Part shown: positions 2,360-61,950 of the stretch, one piece after another
How positions within the stretch are numbered: position 1 is the stretch's first letter
Layout of the letters: each line of letters opens with the position of its first letter
Source of the DNA: Candidatus Kerfeldbacteria bacterium
GTDB taxonomy: Bacteria > Patescibacteriota > Patescibacteriia > SBBC01
Direction of reading: 5' to 3'
DNA length: 64,000 nt
NCBI GenBank assembly: GCA_016207275.1
Contig: JACQPY010000014.1
Span: 6,035 to 70,034 of the forward strand
Program-made: the position numbers and the translations under genes
Notes under the pieces: model-generated
Seen by the model: the letters and a program-made list of their open reading frames with translations, nothing else
Told to the model about the DNA's origin: nothing
The model's database searches: none

Positions 2360-3874
2360 TCATTCCGCTGGCATCGCCTGTTCTAAGGCTTGGCGTACAG
2401 CCTCGGCATCAACCCGTCCCTTGGTCTTACGCATGACCTGACCAATGAGGAACTGCAGCACGGCCGTTTTACCCCGGCGGTACTGTTTGACCTGTTCAGG
2501 GTTATCGTTGATCACCTGCGCGACGATCGGATCAAGCCAGGCTGCATCACGCAGACGCTCGAGTCCCAATTCCTGTACCAGCGCATGCGGTCCTTTCCTG
2601 GTTCTGACCATGCCCTCATATACCTGCATCGCCCCGGCCGTCGTCACGGTCCCGTGGAACACCATCCACAGCAGCCGCCCGAGATCGGCCGGAGGTACCG
2701 ACCGCCCCTGTGCCGTTCGATGTTCGACCGGAATTCGGTTCAACAACCAGTTCGCCGCCAACGAGGTAGCTTCTGGCTTTCGATCCCGCCAGAACGTTTC
2801 GCCGCCCTCACGCCCGAGCTCACCATCGGCGTAGGTACGCAGCTCCGTGACGACTTCTTCAAAGTACGCGGCCAACTCCCGATCCTCGACCAGCCGGCTA
2901 CTGAGATCAATGGGCAGGCCGTACATCTCAACGAACCGGTGACGTTTGGCTGACGGTAGTTCCGGAGTTTCTGCTCTCACCTTGCTCAAAAATTCTGGCG
3001 TAAAGTGCAGCGGAGGAATATCTGGCTCAGGGAAATACCGATAGTCGGCTGAAGTTTCTTTATCTCTTTGTTCTACCAAAGGTGAATCCGTATCCTCACG
3101 GTATCCATATGTCCTTGGGCTCGGGATTAACTCCTTTTTCAATTTTCCTGATTTGAAAGCATTCTTCCACCAATTTTCTTGAAATACCTGAGCATACCCC
3201 AAAGCTCGCTCGACTGCTCTGAATGAATTAAGGTTTTTAATCTCGCTTTTAGAGTACAGATTCTTATCGCCTTTCGGCCGTAGCGAAATATTGGCATCGC
3301 ACCGCAGTTCACCTTTTTCCATGTCGGCGTTCGACACGCCCAGGAAGCGCATGATCAAACGCAACTCCTGCAAAAACGCTTTCGCTTCCGCTGGCGTTCG
3401 AATATCTGGTTCAGTGACAATCTCGACTAACGGCGTCCCTGCCCGATTGTAGTCGATCAGCGTCTGCCCGCCAACGTGCAACAACTTACCGACGTCCTCT
3501 TCCACGTGTACGCGCGTAATTCCGATCGTTCTCGGCTGGGCATCAACCTGGACGGTGAGTGCTCCGCGGACGCCGATCGGTTCATCGTACTGCGAAATTT
3601 GGTACCCTTTTGGCAAATCCGGGTAGGTGTAGTGCTTGCGATCGAACTTGGTATGCTCGGGTATGGTGCAGCCCAACGCCTGAGCCGCCATCACGGCCCA
3701 GCGAATGGCTTGTTTGTTTGGTAACGGCAAGGTGCCGGGGTGACCGGTGCAAATCGGGCAAATCAGGGTGTTGGGTGCCGCACCCTCGCTCATATTGTTG
3801 CAGCGGCAGAACATCTTCGACTTGGTCTTAAGCTGGATGTGAATCTCCAGGCCGATGACCGCTTCCAGGTTCAT
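2360..3874 (-). CDS. gatB: Asp-tRNA(Asn)/Glu-tRNA(Gln) amidotransferase subunit B
   Basis: 504 aa, N-terminus 'MNLEAVIGLEIHIQLKT...FCRC' is the canonical GatB start; full-length similarity. Confidence 0.9.
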   Translation of the reverse strand: MNLEAVIGLEIHIQLKTKSKMFCRCNNMSEGAAPNTLICPICTGHPGTLPLPNKQAIRWAVMAAQALGCTIPEHTKFDRKHYTYPDLPKGYQISQYDEPIGVRGALTVQVDAQPRTIGITRVHVEEDVGKLLHVGGQTLIDYNRAGTPLVEIVTEPDIRTPAEAKAFLQELRLIMRFLGVSNADMEKGELRCDANISLRPKGDKNLYSKSEIKNLNSFRAVERALGYAQVFQENWWKNAFKSGKLKKELIPSPRTYGYREDTDSPLVEQRDKETSADYRYFPEPDIPPLHFTPEFLSKVRAETPELPSAKRHRFVEMYGLPIDLSSRLVEDRELAAYFEEVVTELRTYADGELGREGGETFWRDRKPEATSLAANWLLNRIPVEHRTAQGRSVPPADLGRLLWMVFHGTVTTAGAMQVYEGMVRTRKGPHALVQELGLERLRDAAWLDPIVAQVINDNPEQVKQYRRGKTAVLQFLIGQVMRKTKGRVDAEAVRQALEQAMPAE

Positions 3875-3952
3875 CCCGTTAGAAAGTCAGTTGATGAGGC
3901 ATTCATAAATGTATTTCGATGGTGCTGTATGATTTGCGGTCTTTCTAACGGG
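3875..3952. repeat. CCCGTTAGA-family inverted-repeat element, copy 1a
   Basis: arms cccgttagaaag (3875-3886) / ctttctaacggg (3941-3952) around a 54-nt AT-rich core; left arm abuts gatB start codon. Confidence 0.8.
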
Positions 3953-3957
3953 ACCAT

Positions 3958-4033
3958 CCCGTTAGAAAGTTAACGTGTAAAACACTAAGGATATTAATAG
4001 TTGCCACCGCCGAAAGACAAGTTTTCTAACGGG
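3958..4033. repeat. CCCGTTAGA-family inverted-repeat element, copy 1b (tandem with 1a)
   Basis: arms cccgttagaaag (3958-3969) / tttctaacggg (4023-4033); 5-nt spacer 'accat' from copy 1a. Confidence 0.8.
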
Positions 4034-4133
4034 ATCCATACCCTGTCATTCTACCAGCCAATCGAGGTAACGAAAAGCGCCGCACCCATCAGTATCTTGG
4101 GCGCGGCGCATCGAGCTTCACCTCAAGCAAACA

Positions 4134-4935: not shown

Positions 4936-5042
4936 GACCAGTTCCTCCCTCGACATATAGCGCACTGTCAAATGGCAGGTGGATGCTCTCACCCCCCGTT
5001 AGTATCCGCTCGGAGCTTACGCCAAAGCTGGCTGGCGGTCAA

Positions 5043-5122
5043 CCCCGTTAGAGAGTTATTATATTCCGGTATGATGTCAGATCTTTTACCGAGTACTTTA
5101 TATCAGCTGCTCTCTAACGGGG
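5043..5122. repeat. CCCGTTAGA-family inverted-repeat element, copy 2
   Basis: arms ccccgttagagag / ctctctaacgggg; AT-rich core; flanked by direct repeat gtcaac; a partial arm 'ccccgttagtat' lies at 4995-5006. Confidence 0.8.
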
Positions 5123-5138
5123 TCAACCTGCTGCATAG

Positions 5139-5215
5139 CCGCATAGCGCGGGTTTTATCTCCCCTCCTGCCCGAGGAGGGAGTTGGGGGAGGAGGGAGAA
5201 ACCCGCGCTATGCGG
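5139..5215 (-). terminator. long hairpin downstream of folA (17-bp perfect inverted repeat enclosing a CCTCCCCTG...GGAGG inner hairpin)
   Basis: ccgcatagcgcgggttt (5139-5155) / aaacccgcgctatgcgg (5199-5215); sits immediately 3' of folA stop; no clear U-tract so function as terminator is inferred. Confidence 0.4.
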
Positions 5216-5224
5216 AATTATCGC

Positions 5225-5752
5225 TCAAGCCTTTTCGTACGTCACAAACTGGTACTTGACGCCGCCTTCCTCGTGTGAGTCCGAACGGCTGGTCTCGTGA
5301 AACGCCGGGGGAATGCCCGGAAAAAACGTGTCGCACTGGAACGTCTGCTGAATCTCAGTCAGGTAGAGCTTCGTGCAGGCCGGATGCACGATGGCTTGGG
5401 CATAGACTGACGCCCCGCCGATAACAAAGATGTCGCCGCTGCCGTACTGCTCGGCTAGCTGTAGTGCCTCATCAAGACTTTTGGCGACCAAAACGTTCGG
5501 GGCTGGAACAAAGCCAGCAGGATCGCGGGTCAGGACGATGTTCAAGCGCTGCGGCAGCGGCCGAAACTTGGCGGGCAGCGAATCCCAAGTCGTGCGACCC
5601 ATAATCACGGAATTGACGCGGCCGGCGTCAAACTGACCGACGGTGAGCTTCCGAAAGTGGTCCAAGTCGCCTTTCAGGTTCCAGGGCAGCTTATTCGCAA
5701 TGCCAATCCCGCGCTTGGCGTCAACGGCGGCGATGATGGAAAATGATTTCAC
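5225..5752 (-). CDS. folA: dihydrofolate reductase
   Basis: 175 aa; 'IAAVDAKRGIGIANKLPW', 'IMGRTTWDSLP', 'VIGGASVY' DHFR motifs. Confidence 0.85.
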   Translation of the reverse strand: MKSFSIIAAVDAKRGIGIANKLPWNLKGDLDHFRKLTVGQFDAGRVNSVIMGRTTWDSLPAKFRPLPQRLNIVLTRDPAGFVPAPNVLVAKSLDEALQLAEQYGSGDIFVIGGASVYAQAIVHPACTKLYLTEIQQTFQCDTFFPGIPPAFHETSRSDSHEEGGVKYQFVTYEKA

Positions 5753-5872
5753 GAAAAGAATTACCTTAATTTTTTGTTCGAGCGGAGCGAAGCGAAGTCG
5801 AGAACCAACCGGACAATTAGACGGCTTCTCGACTCCCCCGCCCAGACGGGGTCGCTCGAAGAGAAAATCCCC

Positions 5873-8050: not shown

Positions 8051-8622
8051 CAGCGGTGATTATTTTTGAAATACTCGTCAATCCGCGAGGCTTGCGGTTC
8101 GGACGAACCGTAGTACTTGTTGGACTTTTGCGAGCCGTACGGCCGTTCGACCGGCGAGCTCATCGGAATGTACGACATCTGGGCGATCGGCATTTTGAAG
8201 TACAGCTTGATCGGCAGCGGGCTGACGTTGTGCAGCTCGAGCGTCGGGTGGAGCGAGTTGCCGGGATCGATGTAGCCGGCAGTGGCGTGGATGAGCAAGC
8301 CGATCCGGCCGAGGCTGCTCTTACCCTCTAACCGGCCGGCAATGTCCGAACCGAAACCGGTCCGCTCGATGGTGATCCCCAGCGCGAATTCGCCGGGGTG
8401 AATGATAAACGGTTCGTCTTCGGCAATCTCAATTCTCCGCATCAGCGTTCCAATCGGCTTCTTAATATCGATCTCAGTAAACTTGCCCGTGTCGAAGACT
8501 AAAAAAACTTTGCCCAAGTGTAGGTCAATCGAGGCTGGCTGAATCGCGTTCGGAAACAACGGGTCAACAACGATCCGGCCGGAATCAATCGCCTTTTTAA
8601 TGTCACGGTCAGAAAGAATCAT
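8050..8622 (-). CDS. dcd: dCTP deaminase (dUTPase superfamily)
   Basis: 'MILSDRDIKKAI..G.IVVDP...IQPASIDLHLG' canonical Dcd N-terminus. Confidence 0.85.
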   Translation of the reverse strand: MILSDRDIKKAIDSGRIVVDPLFPNAIQPASIDLHLGKVFLVFDTGKFTEIDIKKPIGTLMRRIEIAEDEPFIIHPGEFALGITIERTGFGSDIAGRLEGKSSLGRIGLLIHATAGYIDPGNSLHPTLELHNVSPLPIKLYFKMPIAQMSYIPMSSPVERPYGSQKSNKYYGSSEPQASRIDEYFKNNHR

Positions 8623-8700
8623 TCCGTTAGAAAGTTAGTTGGTGAAGCACTGATAAATATATAGTACTGGTGATGCATAATTTGCGGTCTTTCTAACGGG
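8623..8700. repeat. CCCGTTAGA-family inverted-repeat element, copy 3
   Basis: arms tccgttagaaag / ctttctaacggg; core homologous to copy 1a (…gataaat.tat…tgat..at.atttgcggt); flanked by direct repeat atcat; abuts dcd start codon. Confidence 0.8.
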
Positions 8701-8723
8701 ATCATCGCTGGTTTTTCCCCAAC

Positions 8724-21218: not shown

Positions 21219-21419
21219 ATAATACCATCATACTAAAACACAACGCGGCTTGAAACTCGCGTCATGTTGATGATGAGAAGGTTCTCGACTCCCCAGCACC
21301 TTGTTGACAAAAGTGCTGGGTCGCTCGAACAACAATTCCTCCCCTGCCCGAGGGGAGGCTAGGTAGGGTGGGAGTTTTCTTCGAGTGAAGCGCAGCGAAG
21401 TCGAGAAGCTACCTATCCA

Positions 21420-22414: not shown

Positions 22415-22705
22415 TCAATAAAGTCGACTGGTGAGGTCGTGCCACGATGGATTCAACGATTCGATCAGTTTAACCTTCTTGCTGCGACGCCAATCCTTAA
22501 CTCGTTTTTCCGCAACAATCGCCTCATATGCGCTGGCGTGTTCTTCAACGTATACCAAGCGGTACACGTTGTATCGGTACGTGAAGCTGTTGCGGAATTG
22601 ACCGCTGCGGTGTTCCATGATGCGGCAGGCGATGTCATTGGTTATGCCTGTATAGAAAACCGTCCGTCGATCATTGCAGAGAATATAGACGAAAAAACGA
22701 CGCAT
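22415..22705 (-). CDS. GIY-YIG nuclease domain protein (UPF0213-like)
   Basis: 'FFVYILCNDRRTVFYTGITNDIACRIMEHRSG…YRLVYVEEHASAYEAIVAEKRVKDWRRSKKVKLI' GIY-YIG motif order; start at second Met. Confidence 0.7.
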   Translation of the reverse strand: MRRFFVYILCNDRRTVFYTGITNDIACRIMEHRSGQFRNSFTYRYNVYRLVYVEEHASAYEAIVAEKRVKDWRRSKKVKLIESLNPSWHDLTSRLY

Positions 22706-25312: not shown

Positions 25313-27570
25313 CGAATCGTTGCTCCCAAACGCTTAAGCGCCTCATTAATTACCTTCATTTTAGCGGAAATTTCGCTATCAGTCAATGTCCGATCGGGTG
25401 CCCGGAAGGTCAAGTGCAGGGCATAGCTCCGCCGGCCGGCCTGCTCAAAAACGTCGAATAATTCAACTGATTCTAAGAGCGGTTGGCCGGCTTGACGAAT
25501 GGTTTTTTCAATGTCGACATATCGAACATTTTCCTTTAACCAAAACGATACGTCGCGCCGGATGGCCGGAAAGGTGGGTAGCGGTGTAAAGCGTTTTGGC
25601 TGGCGACGATCTCGCAACTCAACCACGTCAAGCTCACACCATTCAACCACGCGGCCCTTTAACTCACCTTCATATAAATGAACTGGAATTTTACTAGGCA
25701 AGACTCCAAGGGCCTCTAATAATGACTCGATAACGCCTTTTATTTTTCTAGCCTTGCTGTATCCCCGTCTTGACTTGAATGACAAACCGATAACAATTTT
25801 CCAAGGTTGCTGAGCCTCGATTGGCTTTCCTGATGTCGGCAAAAATACACGACCGATCTGGAATACTTTTGCGTCTCGCCCTGCGTCAACTTCATGCCAT
25901 AGAATTGAATGTAGTTGAGGTATGATACTTCTACGCAAATGATGTTGAGATTTATCTAGTGGGTTAGCAATATCAAAATGTGGACCGGACGTATACTCTG
26001 TATTGACCCACGGATTTCCGTAAAACGCATGCGTCATCACCTCGGTAAACCCCAGCTGTACCAGGACATCTCTTATTTCGTCCTTCAGCTGCACCAGCGA
26101 AGGAACCGGCATGGGCACGGTTGGTATGAGCGGCAGCTCTTCCGGCAGTTTGTCGTAGCCCACCAGCCGACCGACCTCTTCAACCACGTCTTCCGGTAAC
26201 GTTACGTCGCGCCGCCAGAACGGAACAGTAACCGTCCACTGCTTGACGGTGCCGCGCACGCCAAAGCCGAGCTTTGTTAAAACTTGTTTCGCTTTCGTTG
26301 GCGCCACGGCCAGGCCCAGCAATTCGGATATGTACGAGGGTGATACTTTCACCACCGTCGGTCGGTCGGGCCGGCGCCCGGCGCGTACCGTTCCTTTGTC
26401 CACGGTCCCGCCGCACCGTTTCGCCATCAACGCGGCCGCCGCCGCACTGGCTTGCGCGGGGAGCTGTACTGTAATTCCTTTTTCAAATCGCCGCGACGAT
26501 TCGGAAATTAATCCAAGCTTCCGCGAAGTTTTGCGCACGCTGACCGGATCGAACACGGCTGACTCCAAAATAACGGCGGTGGTCTGGTCGTTGATTTGCG
26601 TATGCGCGCCGCCCATCACCCCGGCCAAGGCAATCGGACCTTGCGAATCGGCAACCACCAACATTGATGGTTCTAATTTCCGCTCCACGCCATCGAGCGT
26701 GATCAAGCGCTCCCCAACCCTGGCCGTCCGGATAACAATCGCGCCGTGGACTTTGGCCGCATCGAACGCATGGAGTGGCTGGCCGTATTCGACCATCACG
26801 TAGTTGGTAACATCGACCAGAGCGTTGACCGGCCGAATACCGGCCGCCCGCAAGCGCTGCTGCAGCCACGGCGGCGACGGCTTTATCTCAAGACCACGGA
26901 TCACCCGCGCGGTGTAGACAGGACATAACGCCGGCGCTTCGATTTTTACCCGCACCGAGCGCGCGGCCAACGTGGCGCTCTCGCGCACGTCGACCGGCTT
27001 GTCCTTAAACGTCCGGCCGGTAATCGCCGCCACTTCCCAGGCCAGTCCACGCACGGACATCAAGTCGCCGCGGTTGGCCGGCACGGCGATATCGAGCACC
27101 ACCTCGTCAAACCCCATGGCGGTGGCGAACGACATACCGGTTTCAAGATTCGGATCGAGCACCATGATGCCATTCTGATCAGTGCCCAACCCCAGCTCCC
27201 GTTCGGAGCAAACCATGCCCTGCGACACGACGCCGCGAATCGGTCGCGCCGCAATCGTCAATCCGCTTGGCAGCTTGGCGCCGAGCAAGGCGACCGCCAC
27301 CTTTTGGCCGACGGCAACGTTCGGCGCGCCGCAGACGATTTCCTGCGGTTGTCCCCCGCGCGTGGTGACTACCTTGGCTAGCCGCAGCTTGTCGGCGTTC
27401 GGGTGCGGCTTAAGGTCGACGACTTCACCCACCACCACCTTGTCAAAATCTCGGCCGCGGTCAGTCACCTGTTCGACCTCAATTCCAGCCATCGTCAACC
27501 GTTCAGCCAGCTGCTCAGCGGTCAGCTTGACCGACACGAACTCGCGAAGCCAGGACAGCGAGAGTTTCAT
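25309..27570 (-). CDS. pheT: phenylalanine--tRNA ligase beta subunit
   Basis: 'MKLSLSWLREFV' canonical PheT start; B3/4, B5 and class II core similarity. Confidence 0.9.
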
Positions 27571-27648
27571 CCCGTTAGAGCGTTAGATCGTAAACATTCA
27601 GACATAACTCTTTTAATAATGCTTCGGTAAAAACGGCGCTCTAACGGG
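27571..27648. repeat. CCCGTTAGA-family inverted-repeat element, copy 4
   Basis: arms cccgttagagcg / cgctctaacggg; AT-rich core; left arm abuts pheT start codon. Confidence 0.8.
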
Positions 27649-27649
27649 A

Positions 27650-39008: not shown

Positions 39009-39659
39009 ATGCCTGACACCCAAACATCATCGTTCCGCGATCCGGTCTGCGGCATGAGCGTCAACCCGGCCACTGCCACGTTCACCGCCGACCACGCCGG
39101 GGCGACCGTCTACTTCTGCTCGCCCGGCTGCCGCGACCAATTTCTGGCCAATCCAGAATCCTTCACCACCTCTCCAAAAACAACGGTGGTGACGATCCGG
39201 CCGGAAGTTCTCTACGCCGTCCTGGGGCTCATCGCCGTTATCCTAGTCATTTTCGCCTTTCGACCAGGCCCGCCAAGCTCGTCGGTCAGCACCGGATCAA
39301 CCGCGGCGGTTACCGGCACGCCAGCTGGCCAGGACCAGGTGGTCGATGACGGCTCCGGCGGGGTAATTACGTCAGCCAGTCTAAACCGCTCAGCCAGCAC
39401 CCCTGATCAACTGGTCATCACCGTGTCCCTCAATACCCACTCTGTCGACCTGACCGACTTCCGCCCCGTTGACCAAGTCCGCCTGCGAATGGCTGCCGGC
39501 GACGAACTCGAACCGCTGGCTGTCAGCGGTCAGGGCGAGATCAGCTCGCACCATCAAAACTACCGTCTGACCTTTCCGCGGCCGGGCAGCGCGGAGGCCT
39601 CTGTCGTGGTGAAAAACGTGGCTGGCGTAACCGAACGTAAGCTGCCAATCCAACTATGA
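39009..39659 (+). CDS. YHS/TRASH metal-binding domain protein with TM anchor
   Basis: 'DPVCGMSVNP…YFCSPGCRDQFLANP' canonical YHS/TRASH Cys motif, then TM helix and Ser/Thr-rich domain. Confidence 0.65.
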   Translation: MPDTQTSSFRDPVCGMSVNPATATFTADHAGATVYFCSPGCRDQFLANPESFTTSPKTTVVTIRPEVLYAVLGLIAVILVIFAFRPGPPSSSVSTGSTAAVTGTPAGQDQVVDDGSGGVITSASLNRSASTPDQLVITVSLNTHSVDLTDFRPVDQVRLRMAAGDELEPLAVSGQGEISSHHQNYRLTFPRPGSAEASVVVKNVAGVTERKLPIQL

Positions 39660-39661
39660 AT

Positions 39662-39820
39662 CCCGTTAGACGGCTCACGCATCAACGTATACTCATTGAA
39701 GGTTACGATCATACTTACAAGACTAACCATCTAATCCCGTTAGACGGTCCTGCAGTTGGGCCCGACAGTGGGATAGGCGTAGATCTTCAGTTTCTTAACC
39801 GTCTAACGGGACTAACGGGA
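39662..39820. repeat. CCCGTTAGA-family element, compound copy 5 (two left arms, one right arm plus extra half-arm)
   Basis: cccgttagacgg at 39662-39673 and 39736-39747; ccgtctaacggg 39799-39810; ctaacggg 39813-39820 abutting ATG of next gene; flanked by atgaa direct repeat. Confidence 0.75.
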
Positions 39821-40695
39821 TGAACCTGCTCGTCAGCGCCTCGATCGTCGCGTCGTTCGTGGCTGGGGTGGCCGCACTGTTCGCACCGTGCTGCATCACG
39901 GTGCTCCTACCGTCGTACCTCGGCTCAATCTTCCGCGAACGGAAGGCCGTCTTCTTGATGACCTTCATCTTCTTCCTCGGCATCCTGACGGTCTTTTTCC
40001 CCTTGGGATTGGGGTCGGCAGCGTTCGGCCAGTTCTTGAGCCGCAACCACACGCTCATCTTCTCGATCGGCGGCGCCTTCTTACTCATCCTTGGACTCGG
40101 CCTGCTCCTCGGCAAGAGCTTCTCCCTCCCCTTCCACGTCAACCCCACCCTCAAGAACCACCACCCCTGGTCAGTCTTCACGCTCGGCATCTTCTCCGGC
40201 ATTGCCACCACCTGCTGTGCGCCGGTTTTAGCCGGCGTCTTAGCCCTGGCCGCCCTGCCCGGCTCGATCTTTTGGGGCGCCGCTTACACCGTCAGCTACG
40301 TCCTCGGCATGGTCACGCCGCTGTTCATCCTGGCGTCGGTGCTCGATCGCACCAAACTCACCCAGCGATTCATGGCCTGGCGGCGCAGGTGGACGTACTC
40401 GATTGGCAAACTGGTTGTCAACCTCAGCGTGGCCGAAGCGATGGCCGGCGTCATCTTCGTTGGCATGGGCCTGACAACGATCTGGCTGGCAATGAACAAC
40501 CGCCTGGCCGTCCACTCACGCTACCAGGTTGACGTCAACATCTTCCTGACCAAAGTGCTCCGGAGCATCAAGGGTGCCGTGACCGCCATTCCCGAAGTTG
40601 TCTGGGCAGTCGTGCTGATCCTCGCGCTCATCGGCATTATCGCCCGAACACGTTATCTTATTCGTCAAGAAAAACACTATGACCATAAACCATAA
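39820..40695 (+). CDS. DsbD_2/CcdA-like polytopic membrane protein with CC pairs in TM1 and TM4
   Basis: 'FAPCCITVLLP' and 'TTCCAPVLAGV' in TM helices; ~8 TM; family assignment tentative. Confidence 0.45.
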   Translation: MNLLVSASIVASFVAGVAALFAPCCITVLLPSYLGSIFRERKAVFLMTFIFFLGILTVFFPLGLGSAAFGQFLSRNHTLIFSIGGAFLLILGLGLLLGKSFSLPFHVNPTLKNHHPWSVFTLGIFSGIATTCCAPVLAGVLALAALPGSIFWGAAYTVSYVLGMVTPLFILASVLDRTKLTQRFMAWRRRWTYSIGKLVVNLSVAEAMAGVIFVGMGLTTIWLAMNNRLAVHSRYQVDVNIFLTKVLRSIKGAVTAIPEVVWAVVLILALIGIIARTRYLIRQEKHYDHKP

Positions 40696-46883: not shown

Positions 46884-49800
46884 TTATTTCGCGCTCAATT
46901 TCTTGTACGTAATCTGCTCACCATCCGAGTTAATGACCTTCACTGAAAACGATTTGTTCTTCTTCAGGGCCGACGTATCGATCGTCACCGTCAGCGTTTG
47001 CTCGCCGCTGGACTTGACCTTCTTAGCTGGGGTGGTGCCATTGACCAGCACGGTCGTACCCGACCCCAGGTTTTCACCGGTAATGGTAATAGTCACCCGC
47101 TTAGCCCGCTTGACCGTGGTCGGTGTAACTGATCGGATACTTGGCTGGAGGTTAACCCGCTCAATCCGATCGCCGCTGACCCGCACCCGCCGCGTGTCTG
47201 GGCTGAATTGCGTGAAGCCACGCTTGCTACTCGCGAATTTCCAGCCGCGGAGCTGCGTTCCAGACTTGGTGATCAGCTGCTTGGTGCCGGTCTTGAGCAC
47301 ATCGAGCGGTTCAGCTAAGACGCTGCCGGTCGCCCCGCTATCAATTGTGTAGGTCTTCTTGTTGCTCAAGTCGTATACTTTGACTGTCCGTTGGCGGACC
47401 GGCGACAACGTCACGTCGTCGTAGGTGTCGTTGGTAAGATCATCAACGTCAATTGACGCTCCCAAGCGGTAGCCGCTGCCCCATGGTTTATTCATCCGGG
47501 TAAGTTTACCCTTAACGTTGTACACCTTGACCGTCGTGGCATCGGTTGAGGTTCCAGCTTGCACGGCGACGATTACCTGACCGGCCTTCTTGGTCGACAG
47601 CGTGCCAACCGCCACCTTCCCTTTGTACGTGGCGAATGGCGTGATAATCTTCTTGCTCGAACCGCTGCCAACAGTAACTTTGGTGATGCCCTTGGACTGG
47701 CTGATTTTGACTGGCGTCAGGACTTTGCCGCGGCCCTTACCGCTAGTGCTGACCACGCCGTAGGTCGTGAAGTGGTCAGAGCGGACGCAGACCGTGTTGT
47801 TGTCGGTGTCTTGGGTAATGTTGCTTGGCTGCTTCCAGGTGCCCGAGGCCGAATCCCAGTAGCTCGGCACCAGCGAGGCCTCCTCGACGCCGATGGCTGC
47901 AAGCTGCTCGTCGCTGTACTTGAAGCAGGCCGTGATCGTATCCTTGAACTTGGTGATCGGCTGACCGTTAGCGTCGATGGCCTCAAAGTTGTACCCGTAG
48001 CCGAGCGGCTGAGCCGTCTTCTGGCTTTGGACGTTGATCGTCGGATTGGCGTTGACCGTAACCGTGCCTGAGGAAGCGAGTGCGTTCGCCGGGATGTTGA
48101 TGGTCGTGCCGTCGCCGAGGGTGATGACGTGGGACTGGGTGGCGTCGAACGACTCAGACACTGGCGGCGGAATCTGGAAGTTAGCCGCCCCGAGCGTGAA
48201 GTTGACCGTCTTGGCCTTCTCCTTGGTGATGGTGATAATCTTTTCGTCGCTGTGGAGGAAGGCCGTGCCCGATTGGGCGTTGGCGTTGCAGTGGTAGGAC
48301 GAGTTGAAGGTGTAATTCAGGCTGTAGGAGCCGTTGATGATCGGCCCGCCGTTGTTGTTTCCGTCTTCGCTCCAGCAGCTGACCCAGCCGTTCTGGACGG
48401 CCGTGTCGTTGAAGGTGACGAAACCGACCATCTTCCCGTCAGCGTCGCGAAGCTTGAGCGTCACGTTGGCCGATTTACCAGACAGGTTGACCCGCTCGAA
48501 CTTCGGCGGCATGTACTTGCTGTCAGGCGGCAAGCCGGCGTTGACCGTGTACTGGTGGCCGGACAGCAAGCTCAAGACGGCCACGCCTTTGTCATCGGTC
48601 TCCGAACCGGATCCCAACATGTTCTCGAAAAAGTCCCGGTCCTCGTCGCTGCTTTCGGCCTGCGCGCGAACCAGCTTCAGGCTGGCTACCTGCGACTTGC
48701 GTTCACGGGTACTGATGCTAAGCTTGCCGGCGGCGGCGCTGTGCTCGCCCTCGAACTCTTTTTCGCACTCTGACTTGTGCTTCGAGCAGTACTGCGTGCA
48801 CTCCAAGGCGTTCTTGCAGCCTCCCGGCCCTTCGGCGCCGGGCGGTAGCTTGAAGTCGCGGCACTCCTGCTCGTTCTCCGACTTCGAGCAGTACTTCAGC
48901 ACCTCTTCCGGACTGGTGGTGCCGCCCGGACCCTTGAAGTTTTCGTCGCGTCCACCCTCGCGCTCTTCGCTGTTCCGGCGGAGCCCATCAACTTCCTCGT
49001 GGTTGTCCGCCCAGACCCACACGCGCCGGGCCGGACTGCCGTCAGGATTCAAAACCAGCACGGTCAAGCGGGCATCACCGATCAGCACCTTTAGATCTTT
49101 CTGCACCCTGGTCCCCGAGGCGACGACGATCGGCTCGTTGGACGGCGGCCGGTTCAAGAAGCCCGATGACTGGTCGAAGTTGTAGCCGAGCTGGTAGGTC
49201 CCGGACAGCAGGCTGATCTCGTAGGAACAGTCCGAGTTAATCTGGGTGCCGTACCACTGGCCCCGTTCGGAGTTGGCGTAAACGTCGCCCCGAAAGTTGC
49301 AGTTCTTGAGCGGCAAGCCCGAGCTGTCGATGATTCGGCCGACAATCGCGCCGTCGTTCTTCCGGACCACAATGTCCTTCTCGATCGTCGCATCGGCCAC
49401 CAAGGTAATGGTTTGGCCGGTGGCCGACGAGTACTGGCTGTTCGGCGGCATGTGGATGCCCAGCTCGGCCTGGGTGAAGAGTTTCGAGGGCACGCGGAAG
49501 TTGAACGTCCCTTGGTTGACCGACCCGCCGTACTCGCGGTAGCCGGCCCCGGCCGTGGTGGTCAGCGGCCGGACGTAGGCCCAACCGTTAAGGTCAGCAA
49601 AGGCTTTGCCGTTCTCGTCGACGACTTTGCCTTTGATCGTAACGTCGGCGTAGGTCAACTGAATGTTCACGCCCGAGACAGTGGCCGTTTCCGACGAGAC
49701 GTAGATATCGAGCGGCGGGCCGTCGTAGATGTAGGTGGCGGTCTGACCGCCATCAAAGTTGATGAACCATTGACCAGCGGTGGCCGCCAAGTCGAAGTTA

Positions 49801-51671
49801 CCGTCGGCATCGGTCTTAGTGTTGCTCCAGGCGCTGCACCCTTGCGGCCCGCAATCGAGGTTGCCGTTGATTTGGATGTTGGCTAGTCCGGTTCCATCCT
49901 TGGTCGTCACCTTGCCGGTGATGTGCGCCAGCTTTTCGCTCATCACGAAGTTGGCCGTGACGGTCTGGTTGTCCGCCACCGTTACTTTTTGGTTCTTGGT
50001 GTACAGCCGCGTCTCCGGCGTCCAAACATTCAGGTCGTAGGTGCCAGCTACCAGGTAAAGCTTGTAGGTGCCGTCGGCCTTAACCTGGGCGTTTGACCAA
50101 CGGCTGCGCCCGTCTTGCGTCTGCGAATTGGCGTTGACGTTGCCATTGGTGACGAGCGTCCCGTCCTTCTTCGTTACGGTACCGATGATGACGGCGTTGG
50201 CCTTCTGGACCGTCAGGTTGACGGTTTCGGCCTGACGCGTGCTGTCACTGGAAAACTCGACGATCGCCTCTTGGTCGACGAATACCCAGTCCGGTTCGGG
50301 ACAGTCAAAACTCCGGTCCGGCTCGACCCGGATGTTCCACGAACCCGGCGCCAGGGTCAGGATGTACTCGCCTTGGCTGTTCGTTCGGGTATTGGCCCAG
50401 CCGTTGGCGCCGCGGCGATTGGCGTTGACTTGCGCGCAGGACACGGGCGTACCATCTTTCTTCTTGACCGTACCGGTGGCGTACTTCGAGGCACCGGACA
50501 GGGTCACGTTCTTGGTCGTTTTCTCCGACGTGACGGTCACGCTCACCGGCTCGGGTCGGACCACGTCGGTCATGTCGGACGGCGGATTGACCTCGAAGGT
50601 GTAGGTGCCGGCCGGCAAGCCCCCGATCCGGTACTTGCCGTTGGCGTCGGTGTTTGATCCCTGGTTCTGCGTCCAGTCGTCGTTGTGGAGGCTGACCCAG
50701 GCGTTCGGAACGGGCGTCGTACCATCCGGTCGGTACACCACCCCAGACAGCTGCGGCGTGGTCAGCTTGACGGGCGTCGCGGTCAGATCGAGTCCGCTAG
50801 CCGGAACCGTGAGGCTGACGTTTTCCGAGCCGGTGTACTGTTCAGTGTCCCAGATGTTAACGTGGAGGGTGTAGGTGCCGGCCGGCACGCGGCCAAACTT
50901 AAACTTACTGGCGTTGTCGTAATCGGAATGCTTATTAATGGTGAAATCGCTGTTCCACAGATCGACCGACAGGTGGTATCGCTTGCTCCAGTCCTCATCC
51001 CACGGCAACAGCGAGCCGTTGGGAAACGCAACTTTACCAATGATGAACGGATTGTCGAGCTTGACGGTACCGAGATTGACGGTAATGGTCGGGTCAGTAA
51101 TGGTTACCTTCTGTTCTGAACTGACGAAGGCTGAATTTGCCGGCGGATTCGCTTCTAAGATGTAGCTGCCCGCCTCCAGCCCGCCAAGCTTCCATCCGCC
51201 GTCGTCGCCGGGGCAGGTGTTCTGGTTAACCGTCCAGGTGGAGTTTCGGACCGTGACGCAACCGCTGGTCGCCGTGCCATCGGGTTTTGCCAGCGTTCCC
51301 TTGAGCGACGGGTTGGTGACTTTTATTTGGAAGTTGGTGAGGCTCTCGGTCAGGGTGATTTTCTGGTTGGCCGGGCTGGCGTAGCTGCTGGCGTTCGGCA
51401 CGTTGAGGTTGTATTCGTACGAGCCTGGTTCCAGGCCAGTGACCTCGAACCGGCCACTGCTGTCAACGCTGGATCCCCAACCACCGCTTGAACTCCAGAT
51501 GTTGAAGTTGCCGCCGTCGGCGTACGTCCCGCCGTTCGGGCTGACGACCGTGCCGCTCAAGGTCAGTGAGCCAGCCTGAGCTGGAAGTCGACTGACTGCT
51601 AAGAACAGTACTAAAATTGCCGCGGAACCAAATATTAGTGTCGCGGACCGCCCTCTCATAAAAATAGGCAT
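46884..51671 (-). CDS. giant secreted surface protein (1595 aa) with repeated carboxypeptidase-regulatory-like/Ig-like beta-sandwich domains
   Basis: signal peptide; recurring 'GxYxxEVNPP', 'GKYRIGGLPAGTYTF' modules; Cys/Glu/Lys-rich insert 'KYCSKSENEQECRDFK…CTQYCSKHKSECEKEFEGEH'; C-terminal Ig-like repeats. Confidence 0.75.
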   Translation of the reverse strand: MPIFMRGRSATLIFGSAAILVLFLAVSRLPAQAGSLTLSGTVVSPNGGTYADGGNFNIWSSSGGWGSSVDSSGRFEVTGLEPGSYEYNLNVPNASSYASPANQKITLTESLTNFQIKVTNPSLKGTLAKPDGTATSGCVTVRNSTWTVNQNTCPGDDGGWKLGGLEAGSYILEANPPANSAFVSSEQKVTITDPTITVNLGTVKLDNPFIIGKVAFPNGSLLPWDEDWSKRYHLSVDLWNSDFTINKHSDYDNASKFKFGRVPAGTYTLHVNIWDTEQYTGSENVSLTVPASGLDLTATPVKLTTPQLSGVVYRPDGTTPVPNAWVSLHNDDWTQNQGSNTDANGKYRIGGLPAGTYTFEVNPPSDMTDVVRPEPVSVTVTSEKTTKNVTLSGASKYATGTVKKKDGTPVSCAQVNANRRGANGWANTRTNSQGEYILTLAPGSWNIRVEPDRSFDCPEPDWVFVDQEAIVEFSSDSTRQAETVNLTVQKANAVIIGTVTKKDGTLVTNGNVNANSQTQDGRSRWSNAQVKADGTYKLYLVAGTYDLNVWTPETRLYTKNQKVTVADNQTVTANFVMSEKLAHITGKVTTKDGTGLANIQINGNLDCGPQGCSAWSNTKTDADGNFDLAATAGQWFINFDGGQTATYIYDGPPLDIYVSSETATVSGVNIQLTYADVTIKGKVVDENGKAFADLNGWAYVRPLTTTAGAGYREYGGSVNQGTFNFRVPSKLFTQAELGIHMPPNSQYSSATGQTITLVADATIEKDIVVRKNDGAIVGRIIDSSGLPLKNCNFRGDVYANSERGQWYGTQINSDCSYEISLLSGTYQLGYNFDQSSGFLNRPPSNEPIVVASGTRVQKDLKVLIGDARLTVLVLNPDGSPARRVWVWADNHEEVDGLRRNSEEREGGRDENFKGPGGTTSPEEVLKYCSKSENEQECRDFKLPPGAEGPGGCKNALECTQYCSKHKSECEKEFEGEHSAAAGKLSISTRERKSQVASLKLVRAQAESSDEDRDFFENMLGSGSETDDKGVAVLSLLSGHQYTVNAGLPPDSKYMPPKFERVNLSGKSANVTLKLRDADGKMVGFVTFNDTAVQNGWVSCWSEDGNNNGGPIINGSYSLNYTFNSSYHCNANAQSGTAFLHSDEKIITITKEKAKTVNFTLGAANFQIPPPVSESFDATQSHVITLGDGTTINIPANALASSGTVTVNANPTINVQSQKTAQPLGYGYNFEAIDANGQPITKFKDTITACFKYSDEQLAAIGVEEASLVPSYWDSASGTWKQPSNITQDTDNNTVCVRSDHFTTYGVVSTSGKGRGKVLTPVKISQSKGITKVTVGSGSSKKIITPFATYKGKVAVGTLSTKKAGQVIVAVQAGTSTDATTVKVYNVKGKLTRMNKPWGSGYRLGASIDVDDLTNDTYDDVTLSPVRQRTVKVYDLSNKKTYTIDSGATGSVLAEPLDVLKTGTKQLITKSGTQLRGWKFASSKRGFTQFSPDTRRVRVSGDRIERVNLQPSIRSVTPTTVKRAKRVTITITGENLGSGTTVLVNGTTPAKKVKSSGEQTLTVTIDTSALKKNKSFSVKVINSDGEQITYKKLSAK

Positions 51672-61796: not shown

Positions 61797-61833
61797 CGGC
61801 GCAAGGGTGGCAAAAAGAAATGGCTAAGGTTAG

Positions 61834-61935
61834 CCCCGTTAGAGCTGGCAAGGATGAGAAGTATCGAAATAGGCATGTGCTTGGCTTCTATGCTGGGTTT
61901 TCCGTAGAGTAATATCTTTCCCAGCTCTAACGGGG
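61834..61935. repeat. CCCGTTAGA-family inverted-repeat element, copy 6
   Basis: arms ccccgttagagctgg / ccagctctaacgggg; 72-nt AT-rich core; flanked by gttagc direct repeat. Confidence 0.8.
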
Positions 61936-61950
61936 TTAGCAAAAACTATG

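Follow-up and report, generated by a model that had tools for sequence, protein, structure and literature searches.

Known mobile repeats and the elements of the window

Bacterial MITEs (miniature inverted-repeat transposable elements), such as the Correia/NEMIS elements of Neisseria, RUP, Nezha and ERIC, are short, non-coding, multicopy and hairpin-forming sequences that lie between genes and are co-transcribed with them. They carry terminal inverted repeats and target-site duplications, and their ends are common to a longer coding element; the partners known for bacterial MITEs are all transposases. The same features recur in a set of repeats in a 64-kb piece of a metagenome-assembled genome (MAG) of Candidatus Kerfeldbacteria (Candidate Phyla Radiation (CPR)/Patescibacteria), with a G+C content of 57% and a GatB that is 100% identical to a protein of a Candidatus Kerfeldbacteria MAG; this whole stretch is referred to as the window. 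The repeats are very probably non-autonomous, MITE-like copies of a very small mobile-element family which inserts at TNNA and whose full-length form encodes a GIY-YIG nuclease.

The resemblance to MITEs covers the terminal inverted repeats, a 4-bp duplication of fixed length and the small, non-coding, multicopy nature of the elements (eight in 64 kb), together with a longer coding element that has the same ends (outside the window's own lineage) and sites that are found both empty and filled. The window repeats differ from the described bacterial MITEs in their partner, a unit of ca. 279 bp with a gene for an 86-amino-acid GIY-YIG protein and no DDE transposase, in their precise placement, by which start and stop codons are regenerated at TNNA, in their almost unconstrained interiors, and in their cross-phylum spread, the arms being found in several phyla.

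Other systems share single aspects of the family. The piggyBac and IS1380 elements may resemble it in that their duplication is 4 bp long, with T as its first and A as its fourth base, and in 13-bp repeats whose conserved part begins with CCC. The piggyBac terminal repeat is CCCTAGAAAGATA and its target TTAA, and a likeness to the element ends is a possible lead. Unlike these transposons, the elements have no DDE/DDD transposase, target TNNA and not TTAA, carry an extra Y/R terminal pair and are five to ten times smaller. In both sequence and fold, the 86-amino-acid protein is matched best by Slx1 and UPF0213 (YhbQ/BH0048-type), with conserved catalytic residues. Slx1 cuts branched and stem-loop DNA, an activity that would suit a palindromic element. 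Unlike the element gene, however, Slx1 and UPF0213 are cellular single-copy proteins of repair or unknown function, with no bounding repeats, duplications or MITE derivatives. The GIY-YIG homing endonucleases of phage T4 (I-TevI, Seg, Mob) are selfish genes with the same catalytic fold, but differ in their long DNA-binding domains, in repair-mediated copying into a cognate allele and in having no inverted repeats, duplication or non-coding derivatives.

Neither these repeats nor inverted-repeat elements encoding a GIY-YIG nuclease were found described in the searchable literature, the coverage of which is incomplete; on GIY-YIG genes and mobile elements, one paper merely lists a GIY-YIG gene among transferred genes.

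Element copies in the window

The window contains 14 exact occurrences of the 9-mer CCCGTTAGA or its complement TCTAACGGG. If one mismatch is allowed, the matches number 25, compared with 11.2 ± 3.3 in shuffled sequence, and no shuffle gave 25. The matches pair up into eight elements of 75–100 bp with 13-bp terminal inverted repeats of the form (T/C)CCCGTTAGAnnn...nnnTCTAACGGG(A/G):

3875-3952 (78-nt core; span 3874-3953): element copy 1, arms CCCGTTAGAAAG/CTTTCTAACGGG, terminal pair T/A at 3874/3953
3958-4033 (core; span 3957-4034): element copy 2, in tandem with copy 1
5044-5121 (core; span 5043-5122): element copy 3, in the DHFR-TK spacer, terminal pair C/G; duplication TCAA at 5039-5042 and 5123-5126
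8623-8700 (core; span 8623-8701): element copy 4, left arm with CC in place of CCC; perfect duplication TCAT (gene strand ATGA) at 8619-8622 and 8702-8705
27571-27648 (core; span 27570-27649): element copy 5, at pheT
39661-39820: composite site, outer element (77 nt) at 39662-39734 plus 39816-39819; duplication TGAA at 39657-39660 and 39821-39824
39735-39811 (arms 39736-39810): inner element of the composite site, inside the right arm of the outer element; duplication CTAA at 39731-39734 and 39812-39815
61835-61934 (100-nt core; span 61834-61935): element copy 7, with 25-nt arms that are 88% complementary (inverted repeat I12); duplication TTAG at 61830-61833 and 61936-61939

A clear 4-bp duplication flanks the copies that begin at 5043, 8623, 39661, 39735 and 61834. 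Only copies 1 and 4 are alike in their interiors (82%, family D2), the remaining interiors being unrelated. Consensus scans for a promoter or terminator inside the elements gave nothing above shuffle level.

Arms and target-site duplication across the family

A scan of a genome collection (one genome per species) for two arms 55–85 nt apart returned at least 119 loci, nearly all from MAGs. Among the matches listed, Patescibacteria account for ca. 60%, and the others belong to Omnitrophota, Planctomycetota, Desulfobacterota, Nitrospirota and a few other groups. Chance matches are an unlikely source of these loci, since chance would not concentrate them in such a set of groups. The following description is based on 144 copies from more than 100 genomes of several phyla. 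Their lengths range from 58 to 120 nt, with peaks at 76–78, 92–93 and 99–103 nt, and their interiors are mutually unrelated.

The immediate flanks of the copies match each other directly. Flank positions -5 to -2 agree with +2 to +5 in 78, 68, 69 and 74% of copies, respectively, over a background of ca. 28%, while position -1 is complementary to +1 (T..A or C..G) in 92%. The 4-bp duplication is perfect in 81 of the 144 copies and has one mismatch in a further 19. Its commonest versions, TGAA/TTCA (27) and TAAA/TTTA (23), have the form TNNA; the perfect duplications listed comprise TGAA, TAAA, TCAA, TCCA, CTCA, TAGA and several rarer ones, and TTAA is not among them. Within the arms, pairing is found in 116–139 of 139 copies at positions 0–12 and falls to ca. 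47% from position 13, which sets the inverted repeat at 13 bp. Of these 13 base pairs, one is a Y/R pair, nine are conserved (CCCGTTAGA) and three co-vary: positions 10–12 and the terminal pair are paired in 116–134 of 139 copies, with four pair types each.

These duplications bear on the proposal that the repeats serve single-strand hairpin recombination, as REP/REPIN doublets with a RAYT for their enzyme or as attC sites of integrons. REPIN-RAYT systems are alike in their dispersed hairpin doublets tied to one small nuclease-type gene and in their long residence in genomes, and the present elements are likewise dispersed and hairpin-forming; furthermore, GTTAGA/TCTAAC resembles the attC core GTTRRRY/RYYYAAC. 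However, target-site duplications are present here, unlike in REPINs and attC sites, the GTAG motif of REPINs is absent from the arms, and RAYTs are HUH Y1 enzymes (linkage of the elements to RAYT genes was not searched for). The integron version was rejected on the order GTTAGA...TCTAAC, which is reversed relative to attC, and on the neighbouring genes, which belong to housekeeping operons (gatB, dcd, pheT) and not to cassette arrays. We regard recombination sites of either kind as extremely improbable.

In a Saccharibacteria MAG (L050, 4972-5130), a tRNA-Thr(CGT) gene lies exactly between two arms, its acceptor stem being thereby extended. After it comes part of a second tRNA copy, which ends in a third arm; the arm pair around this tRNA gene has no flanking duplication.

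Filled and empty sites in relatives

Three states of the gatB site are available for comparison. L122, with a GatB 63% identical to that of the window, is empty and reads ATGGAC, ...GTCGTACTATGGACCTC. L121 (GatB 68% identical) holds one element with the flanks A-TGGA-T and A-TGGA-A, and the window holds two, copies 1 and 2. The distal copy 2 is orthologous to the single element of L121, with which it shares the conserved upstream flank GGTAGAAT...GTATGGAT and identical arms around a diverged interior. The gene-proximal copy 1 belongs to the same subfamily as the dcd copy and so was inserted later, at a site of the same type.

The DHFR-TK spacer is a second such case: the spacer of L121 has no arms and its conserved block begins at a single TTGA, where the window has copy 3 with TTGA at either side; this alignment is unreliable in its left part. 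In addition, at the 39.7-kb site of the window an element lies within the arm of another with CTAA duplicated, and near-identical copies occupy different loci of one genome in L021 and also in L011/L017/L074. These comparisons point to insertion events, and the elements are shown to insert with a 4-bp duplication at TNNA.

Placement at start and stop codons

A previous sequence-only reading of the window had noted that the arms abut the start codons of gatB, dcd, pheT and a DsbD-like gene, here termed the DsbD_TM gene. This is borne out, the gap between arm and start codon being 0 nt at all four:

3872-3874, minus strand: gatB start codon (open reading frame (ORF) 2360-3874; GatB_N match); base 3874, the terminal base of copy 1, doubles as the first base of the ATG
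4037-4039, minus strand: upstream duplicate of the original gatB start (gene strand ATGGAT)
8620-8622, minus strand: dcd start codon, within the gene-proximal duplication copy
27568-27570, minus strand: pheT start codon, within the proximal duplication copy
39820-39822, plus strand: DsbD_TM gene start codon, its A being the terminal base of the outer element

The four start codons are the real ones. The Pfam profiles set in close to the N-termini (GatB_N position 2 at residue 6, DCD position 1 at residue 2, DsbD_TM position 4 at residue 8). The GatB N-terminus M-x-LEAVIGLEIH is common to the window protein and 30 orthologues, and that of PheT is MKLSLSWLREF. The elements number eight and not seven, as the earlier reading had counted. 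It had also placed every copy 5' of a gene and never between convergent ones; all six sites in the window are indeed flanked by co-directional genes, and copy 7 lies in an intergenic spacer, away from any start codon.

Across the 144 copies the placement is equally precise. In 53 copies (42 ATG, 11 GTG) an ORF with 80 or more codons starts at offset 0, the base after ...CGGG, compared with 0–3 copies at every other offset from -2 to +39. GTG starts coincide with a C/G terminal pair, and typical flanks read atgaac|element|gtgaag. The distal flank keeps ATG or GTG at the matching position in 37 of the 51 start-abutting copies, from which the original target is deduced to be A|TGNA. Stop codons of the incoming ORF are most frequent at -5, where they take up the opening three bases of the duplication (21 cases: TGA 13, TAA 6, TAG 2), and show a second peak at a TAG within the arm (12 cases). 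Copies at start codons make up 37% of the total, the others lying at stop codons or in spacers. Excision in silico restores a spanning ORF in only 9 of 131 copies; this small number of interrupted ORFs, together with the absence of a 3-nt periodicity in copy length, led to the rejection of an in-frame coding insertion like the Rickettsia palindromic elements (RPEs) and of a translational bypass element.

Such flanks result from insertion into the TGNA of ATGNA, often at an ATGA stop/start overlap within an operon. The distal duplication copy retains the old start codon or the stop codon of the upstream gene, and the proximal TGNA, preceded by the terminal purine of the element, forms a new ATG or GTG flush against the arm. 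The flank comparisons show that insertion at ATGNA or ATGA rebuilds the start codon, which explains the abutment, and they sharpen the earlier suggestion of an element that targets ATGA-like sites into that of a mobile element with a 4-bp TNNA duplication. Since the rebuilt codons leave both neighbours intact, such insertions survive in these compact genomes. Target choice and survival have probably both contributed to the large number of copies at start and stop codons, which in compact genomes are the TNNA sites that can take an insertion without damage to either neighbour.

Two sites in the window illustrate this arrangement. At pheT, the TGA of the upstream ORF (27652-27650, minus strand) is within the distal duplication copy and the pheT ATG within the proximal one, so that the original site was an ATGA overlap; before the DsbD_TM gene, the TGA of an upstream gene of 216 amino acids lies at 39657-39659. 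Both sites were ATGA stop/start overlaps before insertion, and both neighbouring genes are intact at each. The upstream ORF of the first site, between pheS and pheT (27650 to ca. 28090, minus strand, at most 185 codons), has an acidic C-terminus and no match in Pfam or NCBIfam.

Taken as a whole, the interpretation given by the earlier reading is partly supported; it did not extend to the duplicated target site, to the distribution across phyla or to the full-length form that encodes a GIY-YIG protein.

Hairpins and translation

The window copies are predicted to form hairpins with z-scores of -2.1 to -5.1 (copy 1, -3.96), and the predicted closing pair includes the A of the AUG. It had been pointed out that the abutting genes have no canonical Shine-Dalgarno (SD) sequence. 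This is true but not distinctive: of the 56 long ORFs in the window, no more than 9 are preceded by an SD-like motif, compared with 12.8% at random positions, so its absence at these genes is uninformative. Many starts in the window have a TAnnnT -10-like box 5–8 nt upstream, as in TAGAAT-gggagc-ATG (34183) and TATAGT-gaaacc-ATG (6796), and a conserved -10-like box, TGGTAGAAT, stands 8 nt before the old gatB ATG at 4037-4039. This pattern suggests that leaderless transcripts are widespread in this Kerfeldbacteria genome.

In copies that retain an upstream start, the frame from that start runs across the interior without a stop in 17 of 37 cases, compared with 40 of 185 for other frames (p = 0.0035), a modest enrichment among copies that are not phylogenetically independent. 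In 12 cases the frame then closes with the TAA of the arm, 4 nt ahead of the start; in 2 it closes with a TGA that overlaps the start, and in 2 it is fused in frame with the downstream gene. At dcd, the upstream ATG copy opens an ORF of 28 codons whose TGA overlaps the dcd ATG (ATGA). These upstream ORFs are suggestive of coupling by termination and reinitiation: translation would run from the retained start through the element, terminate at or next to the real start and reinitiate there, and the downstream genes would in this way be partly kept expressed.

An RNA-level function has been weighed on the same observations. Under it, the hairpin would be a selected cis-acting structure of the 5' untranslated region (5'-UTR) or intercistronic RNA which controls ribosome access, processing or stability, with mobility secondary or absent. 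The predicted hairpins with the A of the AUG in the closing pair, the more frequently open upstream-start frame and the identity of the arms at the orthologous gatB site of the window and L121, despite diverged interiors, are what such a structure would lead one to expect. It is at odds with the 4-bp duplications, the empty gatB site of L122, the arm-free spacer of L121, the nested insertion and the near-identical copies found at loci that are not related. No more than 37% of copies abut a start, the interiors show no relationship to one another and match no Rfam family, and the same arms flank a protein gene; in addition, the abutment does not need this explanation and the absence of SD sequences is the norm in this genome. 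We consider a selected RNA structure of this kind improbable. A hammerhead, another ribozyme or a riboswitch was likewise rejected on the unrelated interiors and on Rfam, which gave no match at gathering score across the whole window and, at a lenient threshold, one match at chance level (E = 0.6).

The full-length form

In L007, from Omnitrophota, the same arms (CCCGTTAGAGATA) lie 384 bp apart around a small GIY-YIG gene, which is itself broken by a short element. The left arm is a few bases upstream of the ATG, and the right arm, TCT CTA ACG GGG, constitutes the C-terminal codons S-L-T-G. Arms flank the GIY-YIG gene in L007, L127 and L131, and inverted repeats are present at both gene ends in 66 of 80 metagenome loci of GIY-YIG relatives. 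Unit length peaks at 279 bp, and the unit contains one gene only, for an 86-amino-acid nuclease of the Slx1/UPF0213-like GIY-YIG type. The window copies appear to be non-autonomous derivatives of this full-length form.

The two ends of the unit change together. Arm variants follow synonymous changes of the C-terminal codons, CTA ACG GGG being paired with CCCCGTTAG, TTA ACA GGG with CCCTGTTAA, TTG ACG GGG with CCCCGTCAA and TTC ACG GGG with CCCCGTGAA; since they change on both sides together, the symmetry of the ends is itself under selection. A sister lineage in Patescibacteria, for example in L118 and L215, has CCCTGTTAAAT arms.

These features count against the view that the repeats are ordinary MITEs moved in trans by a DDE transposase (IS1380/piggyBac-like or IS5-like), with the GIY-YIG gene as a passenger or frequent resident. 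That view draws on a possible likeness of the 4-bp T..A duplication and 13-bp CCC-initial repeats to piggyBac-type ends, and on the transposase partners of the known bacterial MITEs. Yet no arm pair around a transposase-sized unit is present in ca. 0.93 Mb of loci, the right arm coincides with C-terminal codons of the GIY-YIG gene, both arms co-vary with the protein lineage in the above 66 of 80 loci, and the unit of ca. 279 bp leaves no space for a second gene. A DDE transposase acting in trans is, on balance, decidedly improbable.

The full-length form shares the insertion habits of the short copies. Its stop codon lies just outside the arm, at the duplication position, in 24 of the 49 unique full-length copies examined and for 87 of 120 proteins, and this use of the duplicated target as its own stop could help explain TRRA targets. 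A host ORF starts at offset 0 in 9 of the 49 copies; in 5 of these 9 the old ATG of the host is in frame with the GIY-YIG ORF, whose TGA then overlaps the rebuilt ATG of the host gene. The start-codon site would also supply expression to the coding form.

Individual loci place the coding element in various contexts. In L127 the unit lies between pgk and tpiA, with the PGK stop provided by the TAG of the arm, and is followed by a degenerate tandem copy (1480-1880). In L215 (370-665) it lies upstream of rpsS in a ribosomal-protein operon of Nomurabacteria. In L132-L153 (e.g. L148, 956-1812), many metagenomes have the same insertion point near the 3' end of an ORF6N-domain-like gene, where the GIY-YIG C-terminus is fused with the last ca. 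17 residues of the host protein.

The GIY-YIG protein

The 86-amino-acid protein was reconstructed from the interrupted gene of L007. Among candidates that share words with it, ca. 3,000 are relatives, and a profile search gave 3,492 clusters (50% identity) at E <= 1e-10; PF01541 was recorded for all matches of the protein. The C-terminal LTG, encoded by the right arm, is present in 87 of the 120 best relatives. Residues Y5, Y16, E50 and R61 show no variation and R24 and N31 almost none; they correspond to the Tyr, Arg, Glu and Asn of GIY-YIG active sites. The AlphaFold model (predicted local distance difference test (pLDDT) score of 92) is most similar to two UPF0213 structural-genomics proteins, including BH0048, and to Slx1, with template-modelling (TM) scores of 0.60–0.65 at 25–28% identity. 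The nuclease domains of I-TevI and UvrC score well below these, matches of the homing type taking ranks 9–12, and in NCBIfam the protein has a weak match to grpIintron_endo.

The window has a YhbQ/UPF0213-type GIY-YIG ORF of its own (22415-22705, minus strand, 96 amino acids), which is 28% identical to the element family (E = 5e-8); this low identity and the lack of arms make it a doubtful candidate for the cognate enzyme.

Proposed mobilisation and its significance

We infer that the GIY-YIG nuclease mobilises both the full-length and the short copies. The 86-amino-acid protein, probably as a multimer, would recognise the two arms or their cruciform or hairpin and cut both the element boundaries and TNNA targets in a staggered manner, after which host ligation or repair would complete the move. 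Cutting at the base of a stem by an Slx1-like enzyme would fit this scheme.

Several points weigh against this reading of the family. The pattern used to collect the copies fixes nine arm positions by construction, and the duplication is one base out of register at the gatB and pheT copies of the window and perfect in only 10 of the 49 full-length copies. No full-length copy with CCCGTTAGA arms is present in the 64-kb window or the other Kerfeldbacteria pieces examined, and the window's own GIY-YIG ORF has neither CCCGTTAGA arms nor convincing flanking inverted repeats. GIY-YIG nucleases hydrolyse DNA and are not known to catalyse strand transfer. The limited weight of the upstream-ORF enrichment belongs here too, as does the start-codon preference, which could stem from the enzyme, from selection or from both.

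More tentatively, with doubt slightly ahead of belief, the family may constitute a superfamily of autonomous DNA elements that has so far gone unrecognised and whose size of ca. 279 bp would be the smallest known. These elements would be mobilised by an 86-amino-acid Slx1-like GIY-YIG nuclease and would insert at TNNA in start and stop codons, taking their own stop from the duplicated target and expression from the host start codon, with MITE derivatives abundant in CPR, Omnitrophota, Planctomycetota and Desulfobacterota. Should the nuclease turn out to be the enzyme that mobilises them, the coding form would represent a transposable element of a new kind; GIY-YIG nucleases would join the DDE, HUH, serine, tyrosine and Cas1 enzymes as drivers of transposon-like mobility, and the 279-bp unit would lower the minimum size of an autonomous mobile element.

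For annotation, the family accounts for recurrent 'GIY-YIG nuclease family protein' genes and for hairpin repeats that break assemblies. The core operons affected in uncultivated bacteria include gatB, pheST, rplA-dcd, pgk-tpiA and the rpsS operon. They offer a system for asking how essential genes stay translated with ca. 80 nt of stable hairpin against the start codon; the host of the window is mostly without SD sequences.

Other repeats in and near the window

A solo arm, ACTAACGGG, stands beside a GTG at 4995-5003; it aligns with an SD-like GGGAGGG in L121 and was set aside as a chance match. Between the DHFR stop and copy 3 (5127-5225) there is a second, unrelated palindromic element, CCGCATAGCGCGGGTTT...AAACCCGCGCTATGCGG, which contains a further hairpin, CTCCCCTCCT...AGGAGGGAG; related pieces are found in L121 at ca. 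1150-1205 and 1800-1830. A dispersed direct repeat of 39 nt (family D19, 85% identical), of the form TTTTGTTCGAGCGGAGCGAAGCGAAGTCGAG, occurs at 5772-5810 and 21375-21413, and in L024 and L093 the YhbQ-type GIY-YIG genes are closely preceded by GCGAAGC-rich strings of a similar kind. Finally, an ORF of 1595 amino acids (46884-51671, minus strand) contains internal 61-nt repeats spaced ca. 270–290 nt apart (family D1).

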